Shown: positions 20,243 to 59,410 of the stretch, one piece after another
Layout: each line of letters opens with the position of its first letter
Position numbering within the stretch: the stretch's first letter is position 1
From: Bacteroidales bacterium
Lineage (GTDB): Bacteria > Bacteroidota > Bacteroidia > Bacteroidales > VadinHA17
Assembly (NCBI GenBank): GCA_016928075.1
Contig: JAFGLJ010000003.1
Span: 4,581 to 68,580, forward strand
Length of the DNA: 64,000 nt
Reading direction: 5' to 3'
Position numbers and translations under genes: made by a program
Notes under the pieces: model-generated
Database searches by the model: none
What the model was told of the DNA's origin: nothing
Seen by the model: the letters and a program-made list of their open reading frames with translations, nothing else

Positions 20243-20344
20243 TTCAATCTATTGTACCTAAAAAATAAGAAATTTTTTCGTGATAACTCTAATTTCTATG
20301 TGATTCTTAACTTAGTTAAAAATTAAACCTTAATCATATCATTA

Positions 20345-22408: not shown

Positions 22409-22649
22409 TCCCCCCCTTCAACTGAAGCAAAGCGGACTTTGTCATCCGAAGATTTATCGGAGGATGAGCTCGACGACCAGAAGGAGTCAACGGGTTAGGG
22501 GGATGTTTATATGTTTAACTAGTTTAATAGTTTAGGCGCAATCGCACGTCTCTACGGTTGTTAATAGTTGCAGTCTTCCCTCACAATTTCCTTTTTCCCC
22601 CGGCGTTCACTATGCTCTGCCGGGGTCTTCGCTTCGCTCCGACTTGTAC
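22409..22649 (+). repeat. Composite repeat element that starts at the stop codon
   Basis: It comprises a C-run/TTCAA start, a hairpin (22445-22461), GAGCTCGACGACCAGAAGGAGTCAACGGGTTAGGGGGATGTT, GTTTAA-type units, a GC hairpin plus CTAC, the ~33-nt module (22555-22590) and the 52-nt module (22592-22643). It is colinear with 59211-59394 and 57391-57573. Confidence 0.9.
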
Positions 22650-22840
22650 CTTTTATCTTTTGTCTTTTATCTTTTGTCTTTTGCCTTTTGTCTTTTGTCT
22701 TTTATCTTTTGTCTTTTGCCTTTTGTCTTTTGTCTTTTGCCTTTTGTCTTTTGCCTTTTGTCTTTTGTCTTTTATCTTTTGTCTTTTATCTTTTGTCTTT
22801 TGTCTTTTGTCTTTTATCTTTTATCTTTTCGTTTTATCTT
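22650..22840 (+). repeat. Tandem heptamer array (CTTTTRY), about 27 units
   Basis: 26 complete units counted by hand (variants CTTTTGT, CTTTTAT, CTTTTGC) plus a degenerate end. The array stops 25 nt before ATG 22866. Confidence 0.95.
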
Positions 22841-22865
22841 ACACCTTAATTTTTTACCTATTGTC

Positions 22866-25193
22866 ATGACCAGACATTTCAAATCAAGAGTTGAGAACAT
22901 ATTTTATCAAATGGCAGGCAATTATACCATCTCAACCCGCGTGCCGTACATCGTAGTGGATAATTTTCCAAGGCTCGGCCTCTTTACCGCACTCAGGTTC
23001 CTGGAGTGGGTGTCAGAGAACCCTGAAGGAGTGATTAGCCTGCCTACAGGGAAAACTCCTGAATATTTTATTAAATACACTCGCTACCTGCTGGATAACT
23101 GGGAGAAAAGAGATGTTAGAGATATACTTTCACGCTATGGATTGGAAAGCATGTCCAAACCCGATACCAGGGGACTTCAGTTTGTGCAGATGGATGAATT
23201 TTACCCGATAAACCCGGCACAGCATAACAGCTTCTATAATTACGTTCTTAATTTTTATATTGATGAGCTTGGGCTTGAACGTTCAAACTGCCTTACAATG
23301 AACTCGGTCTCCATTCCCCTGCCCAATGATATGCATTACCGTGAAATATTCCCGGATTTGAGTATAGACCTGAGCCTTCGTTTCAGGGAAGCAAAAACAA
23401 AAGAGGAGGAATTGAAGCAAAAAGCAATATTCATGGTCGACAACTGGTGCTCCGGATATGAACGGCAGGTTCGGGAGAAAGGGGGTATAGGATTCTTCCT
23501 CGGAGGTATAGGCCCCGATGGTCATATCGCCTTCAATACCAGGGGATCGGATCTGTTTTCAACAACCAGGCTCACCGCTACCAATTTTGAAACACAGGCT
23601 GTTGCTGCGGGTGACCTGGGAGGCATAGAAATATCAAGGAAAAGACTGGTAATAACAATAGGACTGGAAACTATTACCTGTAATCCTGATGCGGTGGCCA
23701 TAATTTTTGCAGCAGGTGAGTCAAAAGCGCGTATCATAAAGGATGCCCTTGAACACGATATGAATACTCTATACCCCGCAACTGCATTACAGAGACTTGA
23801 AAATAGCGTATTCTACCTTACAGGGGGAGCAGCCTCAGCCCTGGAAGACAGGGAAGACCTGTACTTTAAGGAAGGCGAATGGACTGATGAAAAAACAGAA
23901 AGAGCAGTGATTAACCTTTGCCAGAAATTGGATAAATACTCACGGCACCTGACACTTGATGACCTTGAAAGTGACAAATACTGCTCCATGATACCGGGTC
24001 TTGGGAATAAAACCGTTAAGGGAGTGGTTGACTCGGTCAGGAAAAAAATAGAACGGGGAATGATTAGGGATGAAAACAAGGTTATATACCATACGGGCCC
24101 TCACCATGATGATATAATGCTTGGAATATTGCCCAAATGTATGCGGCAGGTGCGCTCAGCTACCAATGATGTGCATTTTTGCGTTCTGACTTCAGGTTTT
24201 ACTGCAGTTACCGACCGGTTCATGGAAAGCATCCTGCTGGATACATTCAGGCTGCTGAATGAGGGTGAGATACAAATGATTTACTACGATGACTTTTTTG
24301 ACGGTGGCTATAAAATAAAAAGGTATAAGGATATTTATCATTACCTGAATGCTACGGCACAGCGTAACTATGCAGGTATGCGACGCGGCATATGCCACAG
24401 GGTGGTAAGAGGACTGGTGGAAATATGGGGACTGAAGGACAAGGTACAGATGATAGAAGTTATCAACAATGTAATAAGGACATTACGTAGCTCATATACA
24501 GGAAGTAAAAGCCCGGAACAAATACAGAAGCTGAAGGGAATGGTACGTGAATTTGAGGAGGAACTTGTATGGGCTCATTTTGGTGTACCTATCAGGAATA
24601 TACATCACCTGCGACTGGGTTTCTATAAGGGTGATATTTTTACTGAACAACCTGAGCATGAGCGTGATATAGAGCCGGTGCTGGATCAGCTGCGTACTTT
24701 AAATCCGGATATTATAAGCCTGGCGCTCGATCCGGAAGGAAGCGGACCTGATACACATTATAAAGTTCTCCAGGCAATTGCAGCCGCTGTAAAAGACTGG
24801 GGCAAAGAGAAAGATATTTCAGACCTGCGTGTTATGGGATACAGAAATGTATGGTACCGCTTCCATCCCTCGGAAGTAAATACCATTGTGCCTGTATCAC
24901 TGAATTCAATGGCCGTGCTTGAAAATTCGTTTGAGCAGTGTTATGGAAGCCAGGTACATGCATCATTTCCCAGCTATGAGTACGATGGCAAGTTTAGCGA
25001 TCTTACAAGAAAAATATGGGTTGAACAACTTAAACAGGTGCAACTTGTAACAGGCAAAGCCTTCTTCTACGATAGTGACCAGCCGATGCTCAGGGCAACA
25101 CACGGACTGGTGTATGTTAAAGATATGTCGGCTGATGAGTTTATTACTATGGCCGAAGACCTTGAAAAATTAATGGAAGGCGTCATATTCTGA
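22866..25193 (+). CDS. nagB: Long-form glucosamine-6-phosphate deaminase (NagB domain plus LmbE/PIG-L-like C-terminal domain)
   Basis: An N-terminal 6-phosphogluconolactonase/GlcN6P deaminase-like region (GIGPDGHIAFN) and a later HTGPHHDDIMLG motif (PIG-L/LmbE type). The listed ORF start at 22644 lies inside the heptamer array and is rejected. ATG 22911 is an alternative start. Confidence 0.8.
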   Translation: MTRHFKSRVENIFYQMAGNYTISTRVPYIVVDNFPRLGLFTALRFLEWVSENPEGVISLPTGKTPEYFIKYTRYLLDNWEKRDVRDILSRYGLESMSKPDTRGLQFVQMDEFYPINPAQHNSFYNYVLNFYIDELGLERSNCLTMNSVSIPLPNDMHYREIFPDLSIDLSLRFREAKTKEEELKQKAIFMVDNWCSGYERQVREKGGIGFFLGGIGPDGHIAFNTRGSDLFSTTRLTATNFETQAVAAGDLGGIEISRKRLVITIGLETITCNPDAVAIIFAAGESKARIIKDALEHDMNTLYPATALQRLENSVFYLTGGAASALEDREDLYFKEGEWTDEKTERAVINLCQKLDKYSRHLTLDDLESDKYCSMIPGLGNKTVKGVVDSVRKKIERGMIRDENKVIYHTGPHHDDIMLGILPKCMRQVRSATNDVHFCVLTSGFTAVTDRFMESILLDTFRLLNEGEIQMIYYDDFFDGGYKIKRYKDIYHYLNATAQRNYAGMRRGICHRVVRGLVEIWGLKDKVQMIEVINNVIRTLRSSYTGSKSPEQIQKLKGMVREFEEELVWAHFGVPIRNIHHLRLGFYKGDIFTEQPEHERDIEPVLDQLRTLNPDIISLALDPEGSGPDTHYKVLQAIAAAVKDWGKEKDISDLRVMGYRNVWYRFHPSEVNTIVPVSLNSMAVLENSFEQCYGSQVHASFPSYEYDGKFSDLTRKIWVEQLKQVQLVTGKAFFYDSDQPMLRATHGLVYVKDMSADEFITMAEDLEKLMEGVIF

Positions 25194-56032: not shown

Positions 56033-56638
56033 ATGAAAAAGCTCCAGTTCAGGTATATGTTGATTATTGCTTTAGCGATAATGATATTCAATAAGGGCAA
56101 CAGCCAGAGAGCCCTTCCGGATGAACTCCTCACGAACACTATCGAGGGACAGATACAGTATTTAGAGGAACACACCAGGATTTATGAAAATTACCGGGCA
56201 ATAAGGGAGGATATGTTTCAGAAGGTAAACGGCAATGTCCTGGATTCCCTGGCGGTCTATAAGAATGAGATTGCGGAATTGAATAGCCGAATCTTTTCAT
56301 TAAACAGTACCAACGCTTCCCTTGATAATTCGCTTGAAGAGACTAAAGCCAGCCTGGAGGAGATTACCCGCACAAAGAACGCAATCAGCCTGTTCGGATT
56401 GGAGGTCAACAAGCTGGTCTATAATTCTGTTATGTGGTTAATCATTGCAGCATTAATAGTTCTGCTGGCATTAGGATATACGGTGTTCAAAAGGAACCGG
56501 ATTATCACCGTCAGGACCAGGGAGGAAATCGATAACCTGAAGCAGGAGTTCGAGGAATACCGCCAGGCCTCCAGGCGGGCCCGTGAAAAAATGACAATGG
56601 AACATTTCAAGGAAATACAAAAGTTGAAAAAAACCTGA
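56033..56638 (+). CDS. Hypothetical coiled-coil protein with one internal TM helix
   Basis: 201 aa with a signal or anchor, a heptad-rich segment, a TM helix (MWLIIAALIVLLALGYTVF) and a charged tail. Confidence 0.55.
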   Translation: MKKLQFRYMLIIALAIMIFNKGNSQRALPDELLTNTIEGQIQYLEEHTRIYENYRAIREDMFQKVNGNVLDSLAVYKNEIAELNSRIFSLNSTNASLDNSLEETKASLEEITRTKNAISLFGLEVNKLVYNSVMWLIIAALIVLLALGYTVFKRNRIITVRTREEIDNLKQEFEEYRQASRRAREKMTMEHFKEIQKLKKT

Positions 56639-56714
56639 TCCTCGCACTGCCCGGTTGTCTTTTATCTTATAAAAATTGGTTAGTATATATTATATTTCGT
56701 ATTGAAAATGTTAT

Positions 56715-57344
56715 ATGAAAACAATTCTGTTAACACTTACCCTCAGCATTATCAGCATTAGCATCATAAATGCACAGGACATCCAATTCCCCCAACCCGA
56801 TCGCGATGGCGGCATGCCTCTGATGAAGGCACTTAACCTGAGAAAGACATCGCGTGAATTCTCACCAAGGGACCTGACCGTTGAGCTTATGGGTAACCTT
56901 TTCTGGGCTGCCTGCGGCACCACACGCGGTACATACCGGACAGTTCCTTCGGCTGTTAACTGGCAGGAGGTGAGGGCATATGCAGTGACAAAGGAGGGCA
57001 TATACCTGTACCATGACAGGGGCCACTACCTTGAAAAGCTTATCGACGGCGATTTCAGGGAATATACCGGTACCCAGTCATTCGTAAAGGATGCTCCCCT
57101 GACCATAGTCCTTGTAGCCGATTATTCAAGGATGCGCAGGGAAATGACCGAGGAGGACAGGTTGAAGTATTCCTGGGCTGATGCTGCCTATATCTCCCAG
57201 AATATTTACCTTTTCTGCGCTTCGGAAAACCTTAATACCGGCGTACGCGCACTCATCGACAGGGACCTGTTGAGGGAAAAGATGCAGCTACCCGATACCC
57301 ACAGAATCGTCCTTGCCCAGTGTGTAAGCTACCCTGTGGAATAG
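56715..57344 (+). CDS. Nitroreductase-family protein with a signal peptide
   Basis: 209 aa with MPLMKALNLRKTSREF and LFWAACG blocks typical of the nitroreductase fold. Confidence 0.7.
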   Translation: MKTILLTLTLSIISISIINAQDIQFPQPDRDGGMPLMKALNLRKTSREFSPRDLTVELMGNLFWAACGTTRGTYRTVPSAVNWQEVRAYAVTKEGIYLYHDRGHYLEKLIDGDFREYTGTQSFVKDAPLTIVLVADYSRMRREMTEEDRLKYSWADAAYISQNIYLFCASENLNTGVRALIDRDLLREKMQLPDTHRIVLAQCVSYPVE

Positions 57345-57390
57345 GTGCTGCAATTTACCAGGAGGCATCCAATTCCATTAGCGATTATTA

Positions 57391-57636
57391 ATTGGGAATC
57401 ATTGTAATCTTCCTGCACAATTTTTTTAGACGCACTGGTAGCGCGTCTCTACTTTTTCCCCCGGCGTTCGCTATGCTCAGCCGGGGTCTTCGCTTCGCTC
57501 CGACTTTTTCCTTTTTCCCCCGGCGTTCGCTATGCTCAGCCGGGGTCTTCGCTTCGCTCCGACTTTTTCCTTTGTACTTTTTCCTTTGTACTTTTTCCTT
57601 TGTACTTTTTCCTTTTATCTTTTATCTTTTATCTTG
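57391..57636 (+). repeat. Composite repeat cassette forming the 5' region of the GH20 gene
   Basis: ~33-nt module (57391-57423); hairpin AGACGC..GCGTCT (57428-48); CTAC; 52-nt module x2; GTACTTTTTCCTTT x3 (57574-57615); TATCTTT x3 (57616-57636). It is colinear with 22533-22840. Confidence 0.9.
57453..57563 (+). repeat. 52-nt hairpin module in two identical tandem copies (period 59 nt)
   Basis: TTTTTCCCCCGGCGTTCGCTATGCTCAGCCGGGGTCTTCGCTTCGCTCCGAC at 57453-57504 and 57512-57563. A third copy at 22592-22643 differs at 2 positions, both in the loop of the CCCCGGC/GCCGGGG stem. Confidence 0.95.
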
Positions 57637-57658
57637 AAAACCTTAATACTGAAATAAA

Positions 57659-59209
57659 ATGAAAATCATTGCAAAATCTGTTTACATCGCAGCTGTATTG
57701 CTCTTCCTCGGAGCCTGCACGCCTAAAACGTCTCAATCGCCAACCGACCTCACACAAACAAGTTTTATACCTCAACCTGCAAGTGTTACCGCCACAGGTG
57801 ATGCTTATACAGTATCTTCATCCACAGTGGTTTATTACCGGGCAGGGACGGAAGGATTGCAACAAACTGCCGCCTACCTGGCAGAACACCTGGGTGAGAT
57901 CTCAGGACTGGCTATCATTACTGAGTCAGCAGAAAAAGAGCCATCCAGGGGTATTTACCTGGAAATATCCGGCGACGATCCCGGGCTGGGTAATGAAGGT
58001 TATGAACTGAACATAGACAAAAAGCTGGTTACCATTAAATCAGCTTCAGCTGCCGGCTGTTTCTATGGCTGTCAGACGCTGCTGCAGACCCTGCCGGTAA
58101 AAGCAGCTGGCGACGAGTTGCTGGCTGTTGCTACCGGTACGGTCCGCGATTTTCCTGAATATGCTTATCGCGGGGCCATGCTCGATGTGGCACGCCATTT
58201 TTTCAGTGTTGAAGATGTGAAGAGGATGATAGATTTCCTGGCTGCTTATAAGATGAATGTGCTGCACCTGCACCTGACAGACGACCAGGGCTGGCGCATC
58301 GAGATCAAGTCGTGGCCCATGCTCACAGAGATTGGTGGCAGCACCGAAGTGGGTGGCGGTGAAGGAGGATACTACACGCAGGAGCAATATGCAGAAATAG
58401 TGGAATATGCACAGGAGCAGCATATTACAATAATACCGGAGATAGATATGCCGGGACATACCAATGCTGCGCTGGCTTCGTATGCAGAGCTGAACTGCGA
58501 CGGGGAAGCAAGGGAACTGTACACAGGTATCGAAGTGGGCTTCAGTACCCTATGTACCGGCAAGGAGATAACCTACCAGTTTGTGGATGATGTGGTGCGT
58601 GAGGTTGCAGCACTTATTCCCGGTCCGTGGTTTCATATAGGAGGCGACGAATCCCATGTAACGGCGCATGACGACTATGTTTATTTTGTTGAAAGGGTGC
58701 AGGACATTGTTGTAAAGTATGGGAAGAAAGTGATTGGCTGGGACGAGATTGCCAATGCAACACCGGTGGAAGGTACCACAGTACAGTTCTGGGACGACGT
58801 TGAAAATACCACCATGGGGGTGGATAAAGGAGCTATGGTGCTTATGTCGCCGGCAGCACGCGCTTACATGGACATGAAGTATGATCCCACCACAAAGCTG
58901 GGATTGTACTGGGCGGGCTATATTGAAGTGGATCACGGCTATGACTGGGATCCGGCAACAATGGTCGAAGGAGTCATAAAAGCAAATATCCTGGGTGTTG
59001 AGGCAGCACTGTGGACAGAAACCATCACCAACATGGACGAACTGGAATACATGGTCTTCCCCAGGCTGCCCGGATACGCCGAGATAGGCTGGACGGCCCC
59101 GGACCTCCGCGACTGGGAGACATACAGTTTACGCCTTGCCGACCACGGCAAACGCTTCGAAGACCTCGAAATTGATTTCTACCGATCCTCACTCGTCCCG
59201 TGGAAATAG
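57659..59209 (+). CDS. Beta-N-acetylhexosaminidase (GH20)
   Basis: Lipobox (LGAC) and the catalytic-domain blocks HLHLTDDQGWRIE and IGGDE. Confidence 0.9.
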   Translation: MKIIAKSVYIAAVLLFLGACTPKTSQSPTDLTQTSFIPQPASVTATGDAYTVSSSTVVYYRAGTEGLQQTAAYLAEHLGEISGLAIITESAEKEPSRGIYLEISGDDPGLGNEGYELNIDKKLVTIKSASAAGCFYGCQTLLQTLPVKAAGDELLAVATGTVRDFPEYAYRGAMLDVARHFFSVEDVKRMIDFLAAYKMNVLHLHLTDDQGWRIEIKSWPMLTEIGGSTEVGGGEGGYYTQEQYAEIVEYAQEQHITIIPEIDMPGHTNAALASYAELNCDGEARELYTGIEVGFSTLCTGKEITYQFVDDVVREVAALIPGPWFHIGGDESHVTAHDDYVYFVERVQDIVVKYGKKVIGWDEIANATPVEGTTVQFWDDVENTTMGVDKGAMVLMSPAARAYMDMKYDPTTKLGLYWAGYIEVDHGYDWDPATMVEGVIKANILGVEAALWTETITNMDELEYMVFPRLPGYAEIGWTAPDLRDWETYSLRLADHGKRFEDLEIDFYRSSLVPWK

Positions 59210-59210
59210 A

Positions 59211-59410
59211 TCCCCCTTTGAACCGAGTCCCGGGAATCCGGGACGAGCTCGGCGACCAGAGGGAGCCAACGGATTAGGGGGATGTTAATGAGTTTAAGTG
59301 GTTTAAGAGTTTAGATGTTGAGGGATTTAGAGGTTTAGACGAATAATATCGCGTTTCTACATTGGCAATTATTGCAACCTTCCTGCACAATTCCCCCTGC
59401 CCCCTGCTCA
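59211..59410 (+). repeat. Composite repeat element that starts 1 nt after the stop codon
   Basis: TCCCCCTTTGAA; nested hairpin CCGAG-TCCCGG..CCGGGA..CTCGG (59223-52); CGACCAGAGGGAGCCAACGGATTAGGGGGATGTT; GTTTAAGTG/GTTGAGG units (59292-59340); degenerate hairpin plus ~33-nt module (59361-94); CTGCCCC about 2 units (59397-59410). Confidence 0.9.

Follow-up and report, generated by a model that had tools for sequence, protein, structure and literature searches.

Spacers upstream of a NagB-like gene and a GH20 gene in an uncultured Bacteroidales genus as apparent assemblies of a genus-wide intergenic repeat vocabulary

The intergenic DNA upstream of a gene encoding a NagB-like protein (nagB for brevity) and of a gene encoding a GH20 beta-N-acetylhexosaminidase was analysed in a 64,000 nt stretch of the Bacteroidales assembly GCA_016928075.1 (contig JAFGLJ010000003.1, positions 4,581 to 68,580 of the forward strand), referred to here as the window. 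The source of the window (designated G000) is a metagenome-assembled genome (MAG) of 2.76 Mb, in 76 contigs and 76% complete, from an uncultured Bacteroidales genus; it was compared with 15 congeners (16 genomes in total) and with a few other genera of the family. On balance, both spacers appear to be local assemblies of a genus-wide intergenic repeat vocabulary, in which hairpin modules are combined with a heptamer microsatellite anchored on the core promoter. The first part of this vocabulary would be formed by GC hairpin modules, H1 (with a 33-nt companion) and H2, which resemble repetitive extragenic palindromes (REPs) and bacterial interspersed mosaic elements (BIMEs). The second would be a polar T-rich heptamer microsatellite joined to the hairpin, the 3′ end of which, before genes, would coincide with the gene's own Bacteroidetes-type −7 box, TTTATCTTT(G). 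The parts of the two spacers are as follows.

22533..22554, + strand: degenerate H1 hairpin (AGGCG...CGTCT) with CTAC, −4.1 kcal/mol
22555..22591, + strand: ~33-nt H1 companion module, GGTTGTTAATAGTTGCAGTCTTCCCTCACAATTTCC, ~75% identical to 57390-57423
22592..22643, + strand: H2, one 52-nt copy, stem 22598-22604 / 22619-22625, 14-nt loop, tail TCTTCGCTTCGCTCCGAC
22650..22842, + strand: T-rich heptamer array of 25.7 clean CTTTT(A/G)(T/C) units and 2-3 degenerate units, found with Tandem Repeats Finder (TRF) and by repeat search; the last unit is the −7-like box
22835..22842, + strand: TATCTTAC, putative −7 box of the NagB-like gene, aligned with AGTATCTTTCGG / TATCTTTAAG, which are equally far from the ATG in the repeat-free G015, G010, G005 and G003
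22843..22865, + strand: gene-specific leader with ACACCTTAAT (22841-22850), kept in nagB orthologues with and without arrays
22866..25193, + strand: NagB-like gene, 775 aa, with a NagB domain and a weak PIG-L-like C-terminal domain, start ATG at 22866
57390..57423, + strand: ~33-nt H1 companion module
57428..57452, + strand: H1 hairpin AGACGCACTGGTAGCGCGTCT with CTAC, −9.1 kcal/mol, z = −2.2; the other strand reads GTAG plus palindrome, as in REPs
57453..57563, + strand: two tandem H2 copies (57453-57504 and 57512-57563), period 59 nt
57562..57637, + strand: T-rich array, 14-mer ACTTTTTCCTTTGT × 3.9, then CTTTTAT × 3.4, ending in TATCTTGA (TRF and repeat search)
57599..57630, + strand: putative promoter-like geometry made of repeat units, TTTG (57599-57602), N20, TATCTTTT (57623-57630)
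57638..57658, + strand: gene-specific A-rich leader with AAACCTTAAT (57638-57647), kept in cassette-free GH20 orthologues
57659..59209, + strand: GH20 beta-N-acetylhexosaminidase gene, Pfam Glyco_hydro_20 (318 bits) and Glyco_hydro_20b
22409..22532, + strand: C-run...GGGGG multi-hairpin element directly 3′ of the DUF2961 stop codon, folding at −35 kcal/mol; a separate dispersed family outside the shared cassette, with further BLAST copies at C43:58753-58819 and at 59241-59314 of the window

Both spacers were found to contain, on the + strand, a GC hairpin with CTAC, a ~33-nt module, the 52-nt module (H2), T-rich 14-mer and 7-mer arrays and an A/T-rich leader that ends at the ATG. The colinearity of the two regions, as claimed in a preliminary description of the window, was borne out by direct reading of the module order and by a BLAST alignment of module plus array (129 nt, 84% identity, E = 5e-30). 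Direct reading likewise places the ~33-nt module after the hairpin at nagB (22555-22590) and before it at GH20, and the preceding genes, DUF2961 (GH172) and a nitroreductase, respectively, are co-directional as described. Exactly three occurrences of the 52-nt module's 47-nt core were counted in the window (22597-22643, 57458-57504 and 57517-57563), against none expected from 100 shuffles, and at two loop positions the nagB sequence departs from that of the GH20 copies (50/52 nt identical, 96%). The copy numbers given earlier for the two spacers were confirmed, with one 52-nt module and ~27 array units counted at nagB against two modules and ~3+4 units at GH20; they derive from a short-read MAG and may be collapsed. 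TRF reported CTTTTGT × 25.7 at nagB (22650-22829, with 2-3 degenerate units extending to 22842) and, at GH20, a 59-nt period × 2.1 (57452-57573), the 14-mer × 3.9 (57562-57615) and CTTTTAT × 3.4 (57612-57635). The hairpin preceding CTAC is sound at GH20 and decayed at nagB. Searched against Rfam, the window had no match that reached the gathering threshold, the two spacers had none even at E <= 1, and five further cassette loci matched no family except a tRNA. Exact-protein look-ups with the NagB-like and GH20 proteins returned no other strain, and no metagenome contig searched matched a 35-nt junction sequence exactly.

The hairpin modules were shown to be dispersed through the MAG. H1 (AGACGC..GCGTCT followed by CTAC; AGACGCGC..GCGCGTCT+CTAC) is present in 10 perfect copies with CTAC, with 31 TAC-type flanks among 230 GC hairpins, and its 33-nt companion flanks H1 hairpins elsewhere in the genome. 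H2, a 52-nt CCCCGGC/GCCGGGG hairpin with a CTTCGCTCC(G/A)AC tail, had been described as confined to the two spacers, which holds within the window (three copies) but not genome-wide, where a profile of the hairpin half recovered 13-14 copies at at least nine loci, every one of them followed 3′ by T-rich heptamers. These copies are found before the NagB-like gene and GH20, before rplU and a gene for a metallo-beta-lactamase (MBL)-fold protein (two copies each), and before a NUDIX gene, a membrane protein gene and a tRNA-Pro gene; further copies are located at contig ends. Across the genus, a covariance model of H2 yielded 105 matches in 10 of the 16 genomes. The 7-bp stem is paired in 95.8% of cells across 17 copies, and compensatory changes (C-G to U-A or G-C to A-U) are seen in two of its pairs. 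Matches to cassette DNA were obtained in 12 of the 15 congeners and, within the family, in a few further genera. Among 39 congener copies, 20 point toward a gene start and 17 toward a gene end, with all four spacer types represented, a ratio indicative of H2 alone being a generic intergenic hairpin repeat; GlnS-like, LeuS-like, glycosyltransferase, MoaC and other genes follow it.

Two H2 subfamilies can be distinguished by their tails, TCTTCGC in the nagB, GH20 and rplU copies of G000 and TTTCCGC in the nagB copy of G004. The former occurs genus-wide and, in congeners, often inside GCAGGGAG arrays. Since the orthologous nagB copy of G004 belongs to the TTTCCGC subfamily, replacement of modules is suggested, and the near-identity of H2 at the two focal loci appears to reflect a shared subfamily and module exchange or replacement, not common regulation. 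Homogenisation of H2 within the genome was considered and rejected, as the two tails represent subfamilies found across the genus. The shared TCTTCGC tail, together with Y1 transposase genes in all repeat-rich congeners, could also point to a recent, coincidental insertion of one composite, resembling the MITEs (miniature inverted-repeat transposable elements), before both genes. Such an event is very improbable: neither terminal inverted repeats nor target-site duplications surround the cassette as a whole, a repeat search found no inverted repeats at the borders of either spacer, the modules are ordered differently among loci and species, the components do not share one history (33-nt modules 75% identical, H2 96%), cassette positions are orthologous across species, and the Y1 gene of G000 is not flanked by H1 or H2. 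The earlier caveat that a mobile element might be involved stands only as far as the modules are dispersed, their positions being mostly vertically inherited.

Y1 (IS200/RAYT-type) transposase genes were found in every repeat-rich congener and were lacking in G003, G005, G007, G010 and G012, a distribution that is confounded by phylogeny, so that a RAYT connection is no more than a lead. The Y1_Tnp gene of G000 (C9:5436-5777) is flanked by small GCTCCGAAGGAGC-type hairpins, and that of G013 by its own GTCCC-N4-GGGAC repeats. Within H2 itself, some tails contain a nested CCCGCC..GGCGGG hairpin (H3), in which CCCGCCATAGCCTCCGGCGAAGGCGGG is placed between two CTTCG pentamers, copies devoid of this hairpin reading CTTCGCTTCG. 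The arrangement, seen in G000 at C1:81-125, at the starts of contigs C10 and C5, at C16:5631-5712 and at C29:39611-39746, and also at locus L013, is suggestive of an insertion that duplicated 5 nt, or of the footprint of one. Upstream of nagB in G004 (locus L012, contig C48), one H2 copy carries an inverted 14-nt loop (TGAACGAAGTGAAC versus GTTCACTTCGTTCA) between unchanged flanks, and at congener loci L142, L144, L146, L148, L150 and L154 an H2 subfamily is embedded in GCAGGGAG heptamer arrays rather than T arrays.

The second component, the T-rich array, is part of an abundant class of repeats. TRF identified 620 tandem-repeat loci in G000, among which period 7 is the most frequent (167/620), and repeats are present in 280 of the 1051 spacers longer than 60 nt. 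A regular-expression census recovered 45 T arrays. These are polar, as they start at a GC hairpin (H1, H2 or H3), continue with CTTTTT(A/C) or CTTTGTA units and then CTTTT(A/G)T, and end in ..TATCTT, with the 3′ end placed 3-41 nt, and in many cases 0-15 nt, before the ATG. Seven are located in convergent, 23 in co-directional and six to seven in divergent spacers; those in co-directional spacers are predominantly in sense orientation (19 versus 4 antisense, p = 0.003). Array direction has no link to GC skew, and the sense bias is consequently indicative of an orientation that depends on the adjacent gene rather than on replication; a replication-coupled orientation, as known for single-stranded DNA transposons, was rejected on this basis. 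At C31:16841-17075, a stop codon is followed by an A-rich array of 24 units and then, ahead of the next gene, by a short T array. In G000, no fewer than seven contig ends fall within T arrays or H2 modules (the starts of C10, C5, C37, C47 and C1, and the ends of C43 and C44), and true array lengths and copy counts are therefore probably underestimated.

The genes located 3′ of sense arrays in G000 are functionally heterogeneous. They encode ribosomal protein L21 (rplU), an ABC ATPase, a beta-lactamase-fold protein, two MBL-fold proteins, a peptidase S51, an O-methyltransferase, a GNAT protein, an aminotransferase, an AAT-like protein, thiamin pyrophosphokinase (TPK), a NUDIX protein, a GH29 fucosidase, a GH106-like protein, a DJ-1/PfpI protein, a CNNM/CBS protein, two proteins of unknown function, the NagB-like protein, GH20 and two tRNA-Pro. 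The preliminary description had proposed a portable promoter or regulatory cassette that marks a regulon for N-acetylglucosamine and glucosamine (GlcNAc/GlcN) catabolism and in which repeat number tunes or switches expression. The amino-sugar link of both focal genes and their nearly identical H2 copies favour that proposal, and the occurrence of AACCTTAAT or CACCTTAAT 10-15 nt before the ATG at DUF2961, NagB-like and GH20 only would also agree with it. Nevertheless, it is extremely improbable, as the same composite of hairpin and T array precedes more than 20 unrelated genes, and the genomic copies of the 52-nt module showed no amino-sugar bias among the genes downstream, an outcome that the preliminary description had itself named as refuting such a regulon. 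Moreover, nagA (C26) and a second GH20 gene (C40), which are the remaining GlcNAc genes that could be recognised in the MAG, have neither hairpin module nor array upstream, and the GH20 orthologues of G004, G006 and G009 lack the cassette while the nagB orthologues keep their arrays. The AACCTTAAT-like stretch, which had been counted as a cassette part, was rejected as such, as it is a native leader sequence that lies outside the repeat and is present in cassette-free orthologues. A shared upstream cassette thus need not imply a shared regulon, and a tempting inference is removed.

Comparison of orthologous loci revealed that arrays are largely kept in place while their composition changes. 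Of the 19 open reading frames (ORFs) located 3′ of congener H2 copies, 12 are orthologues (77-92% identity) of the 22 array-bearing genes of G000, among 2139 genes, showing that cassette positions are largely inherited, with changes in composition and unit number. All eight genomes with DUF2961-nagB synteny carry T arrays directly before nagB, with ~27 units in G000 and about 3-11 in G004, G001, G006, G008, G014, G009 and G002. H2 precedes nagB in G000, G001, G014 and G004, the last with two copies of which one has its loop inverted, and is replaced by CAGCCT hexamers or other hairpins in G006, G008 and G002. In the repeat-poor G015, G010, G005 and G003, the upstream neighbour is a different gene and a plain AGTATCTTT(C/A).. 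box is aligned with TATCTTAC. GH20 arrays were found in three of ~9 orthologues, namely G000, G001 (~9 units) and G014 (2 units), with H2 restricted to G000 and G014; presence in these genomes versus absence in G004, G006 and G009 is accompanied by a difference in synteny. The array-free GH20 genes of G004 and G006 have canonical TACTTTTG and TACATTTG boxes, respectively, and that of G009 has TATTTTTA; the G004 box is aligned with TATCTTTT of G000 (57623-57630).

Six further array-bearing genes were compared in five congeners. TPK carries arrays in 5/5 species, the MBL, S51, aminotransferase and GH29 genes in some (GH29 in 2/5), and rplU in G000 only, 5′ of a conserved canonical promoter and leader. 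Where orthologues are free of arrays, a single TTTATCTTT(G/A) or CTTTTATCTTAG box is located at the position where the array ends in the others, i.e. AGTATCTTTCGG at nagB, TACTTTTG / TACATTTG at GH20, GTTTATCTTTAAAATTG at MBL, TTTATCTTTG at the aminotransferase gene and CTTTTATCTTAG at GH29. Unit number at the same locus varies between species for nagB, GH20, TPK, MBL and the aminotransferase gene; the earlier suggestion that repeat number changes by slippage is thereby supported over evolutionary time only. At rplU (L166, G000:C62:64400-66500; L171-L175), the conserved TTG..TATCTTTG promoter and a structured ~75-nt leader (CAGTCCGAATTTCAGAATAATCCGCCGGGG...GCCCGCCTCACGGAGTAAT) are present in 6/6 genomes; the leader is without an Rfam match and may represent a Bacteroidales L21 leader.

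Conservation of arrays at the same genes could alternatively mean that they are selected cis elements offering one site per heptamer, either to a single-strand-binding protein such as S1 or one with a cold-shock domain, bound to a U-rich 5′ leader, or to a DNA-binding protein 5′ of the promoter, with common control of ~20-40 genes. A platform of this type has been proposed for TAACTGA heptamers before start codons (MacGregor 2015, PMC4679880), where it was also noted that CspB binds T-rich heptamers, one protein per heptamer. It would account for the sense bias, which follows the gene and not replication, and for the many arrays 0-15 nt from the ATG, which would be partly transcribed. We regard it as unlikely, considering that arrays are patchy among orthologues (rplU in G000 only, GH20 in 3/~9, GH29 in 2/5), that they also occur in convergent spacers and abut stop codons, that unit sequence and number drift freely, and that no candidate binding protein was identified.

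The association of each array with a hairpin also raises the question of termination. Here, an H1 or H2 hairpin plus U-rich array would end the upstream transcript and insulate the next gene, the arrays being expanded U-tracts and a promoter at their 3′ edge still being allowed. In keeping with this, each array begins at a hairpin, next to which its T-richest units (CTTTTTA/C) are placed, the arrays of co-directional spacers are sense to the upstream gene, and in the convergent spacers on C53 and C76 two arrays extend outward from a central hairpin, as in a bidirectional terminator. However, a simple consensus terminator scan found none in either spacer, and neither H1 nor H2 combines a short loop with an immediate U run as an intrinsic terminator does, the T run beginning 4 nt (H1) to ~20 nt (H2) past the stem and the H2 loop measuring 14 nt. 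In addition, six or seven arrays are located in divergent spacers, including that of rplU, where there is nothing to terminate. Termination as the explanation is accordingly quite unlikely. Neither docking nor termination excludes the view of the spacers as promoter-anchored repeat assemblies, with which both are compatible.

The proposed anchoring on the core promoter is based on the position of −7-type boxes. In G000, TAnnTTTG is enriched 15-35 nt before ATGs, TATCTTTG being the third commonest form, and the spacing between (T)TTG and TAnnTTTG peaks at 19-20 nt. Motif and spacing agree with the published Bacteroidetes sigma-A promoter, with TTTG at −33 and TAnnTTTG at −7 (PMC7366714); 5′ untranslated regions (UTRs) of B. 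thetaiotaomicron have a median of 32 nt and a mode of 23 nt, with 3.7% below 10 nt (PMC7366714). Since the distance from array end to ATG is 0-15 nt in many cases, the array would have to contain the promoter, or the 5′ UTR at the least. At GH20, TTTG-N20-TATCTTTT can be read from the repeat units, with T rather than G as the final base, and the tRNA-Pro genes and locus L003 have canonical boxes (TATATTTG, TATTTTTG and TATCTTTG) directly after the array. A sigma-70 consensus scan returned nothing relevant in the spacers, sigma-70 being the wrong model for Bacteroidetes. A fixed −33/−7 register in every array was considered, but by hand it was seen at GH20 only among three loci and is not claimed generally. 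In line with the earlier statement that any promoter must lie inside the cassette, the single −7-type box of array-free orthologues falls exactly at the array end, suggesting that the promoter is probably within the cassette, at the 3′ edge of the array.

Most likely, then, the array grew upstream from the T-rich −7 box by 7-nt replication slippage, and its purity would be kept by continued slippage. The core promoter would be located at or inside the 3′ edge of the array, which would take the place of the −33 and upstream region. As three units make up 21 nt (3 × 7), a TTTG remains ~19-20 nt 5′ of the TA..TTT box at any unit number. The arrays lie 5′ of the −7 box, and unit changes with this 21-nt phase would leave the −33/−7 spacing unaltered, so copy-number change is unlikely to operate as an on/off spacer switch. 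Switching by array length, as proposed with the regulon, thus appears geometrically unlikely.

Several observations weigh against this reading or limit it. The density of T arrays is similar in convergent, co-directional and divergent spacers, and TATCTT is also the terminus of 11-13 arrays that point toward gene ends or occupy convergent spacers, in which a promoter is not called for. Local growth from −7 boxes is therefore insufficient to explain all arrays, and a number of them must have been duplicated whole or have originated at other sites, e.g. at terminator T-tracts. Inverted pairs of T arrays (A-rich, hairpin, T-rich) fill the convergent spacers C53:132752-132916 and C76:14096-14181, a layout that resembles a bidirectional terminator. 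At the focal genes themselves, the nagB box TATCTTAC has no TTG at 19-20 nt, and both putative −7 boxes lack the consensus final G. Further weak points are the incompleteness of the MAG (76%) with arrays at contig ends, and the use of crude ORF calls.

A stronger version of the promoter-anchored reading holds that the arrays are tandem copies of the −7 region kept at the same 20-40 genes by function, either as a self-phased promoter array (21-nt phase) or as a docking platform with one site per heptamer and length-dependent control. We consider this version unlikely, and we know of no promoter-seeded functional microsatellites of such a kind. The picture of hairpins plus a promoter-anchored heptamer array, inherited at the same genes, is nonetheless a testable account of how intergenic DNA builds up in repeat-rich Bacteroidales. 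If the arrays affect transcription or translation, they would represent a new and simple route by which promoter regions grow and vary in bacteria without −35/−10 promoters and Shine-Dalgarno sites; if they have no effect, they would be a clear case of tolerated, self-renewing repeats.

The arrays also affect gene annotation. The nagB array (window 22644-22865) is open in the frame of the gene, which adds 74 phantom codons to the N-terminus, starting at TTG 22644, and gives a phantom ORF of 86 aa; open frames 5′ of several orthologous array-bearing genes are lengthened likewise. The start ATG of the NagB-like protein is aligned in 15/15 congeners, and the in-frame array is therefore not coding; the phantom extension serves as a warning for gene callers. 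The protein itself, previously described as a long-form NagB, has no Pfam match at E <= 0.001 and scores below the curated cut-offs of nagB models, with 191 bits against a cut-off of 384 bits for NCBIfam PRK02122 ('glucosamine-6-phosphate deaminase-like'). Residues 191-339 match solved NagB structures (PDB 3hn6, E = 1e-18) and the C-terminal half gives a weak PIG-L match. The 775-aa protein may accordingly be called NagB-like on the strength of its NagB domain, with a plausible amino-sugar link, but its identity as a deaminase is not established.

With respect to the neighbouring genes (window 56033-57344), the nitroreductase gene is located between a coiled-coil protein gene and GH20 in G000, and the coiled-coil gene is directly 5′ of GH20 in G004, G007, G008, G009, G012 and G014. 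A stretch that matches the GH20 leader identically, GAAAACCTTAATAC (57223-57236), is found within the nitroreductase ORF, and a lone GTCTTTTATCTT is present in the spacer before the nitroreductase gene. In the whole MAG, AACCTTAAT or CACCTTAAT is found 10-15 nt before the ATG of DUF2961/GH172, NagB-like and GH20 only (window 20325-20334, 22841-22850 and 57638-57647). This leader motif is kept in the DUF2961 orthologues of G004 and G002 and degraded in that of G014. It could be a shared leader or operator motif, for which the statistics are weak (48 genes with one mismatch versus 23 in the antisense control).

Among known repeat systems, REPs and BIMEs of Enterobacteria and Pseudomonas are short GC-rich imperfect palindromes with a GTAG/CTAC foot, associated with REP-associated tyrosine (Y1) transposases (RAYTs) (Gilson 1991; Nunvar 2010; Ton-Hoang 2012). 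The H1 palindrome with its GTAG/CTAC foot (10 perfect copies), the mosaic with other motifs, the strictly intergenic location, the compensatory stem changes and the Y1 genes in repeat-rich genomes are all shared with these elements. Unlike them, the cassette exhibits no alternating orientation, and microsatellites are not part of BIMEs. As the Y1 gene of G000 is not a cognate RAYT flanked by the H1 or H2 palindromes, the cassette is only REP-like. The BOX elements of Streptococcus pneumoniae (boxA-(boxB)n-boxC, modules of 45-59 nt; Croucher et al. 2011, PMC3049150) are likewise modular and foldable, with a variable number of inner modules and a dispersed intergenic location near gene starts, but they are unrelated in sequence and lack a 7-nt microsatellite. 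BrickBuilt of Porphyromonas gingivalis, which has units of 23 nt and small terminal inverted repeats and numbers 19 copies in one species (Klein et al. 2015, PMC4596501), also comes from Bacteroidales and is an intergenic element with a leader and tail around a variable-number tandem array, reported with promoter elements; the cassette differs in its units of 7 or 14 nt, its freely recombining modules and its lack of bounding terminal inverted repeats.

Phase-variable promoters of Haemophilus and Neisseria carry a simple sequence repeat (SSR) tract between −35 and −10 or in the 5′ UTR, where a change of one unit alters spacing (PMC12721329). The cassette arrays are similarly slippage-prone tracts in a promoter or 5′ region, but do not share this geometry, as they are located 5′ of the putative −7 box with a 21-nt phase. 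The arrays fit a known but unexplained class, the intergenic heptanucleotide repeats (PMC4679880, PMC4692102), which include long SSRs (Mrazek et al. 2007, cited in PMC4679880), TAACTGA repeats that precede start codons in Beggiatoaceae, cyanobacteria and some Bacteroidetes (MacGregor 2015, PMC4679880) and G-rich heptamers in Xanthomonas and Nostoc (Rehm 2015, PMC4692102). At least three head-to-tail units, a forward bias in intergenic DNA and unit-step differences between species were all found here. Also in common are the 7-nt unit, the few to tens of units mostly in forward orientation just 5′ of start codons, the lack of a downstream functional pattern, the 7-nt-step differences between relatives and the sporadic phylogeny. 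Compared with these repeats, the cassette arrays are distinguished by a T-rich unit (CTTTTAT/GT/TA/TC) that resembles the Bacteroidetes −7 box, by a polarity that always starts at a GC hairpin, and by positions that are conserved at orthologous genes.

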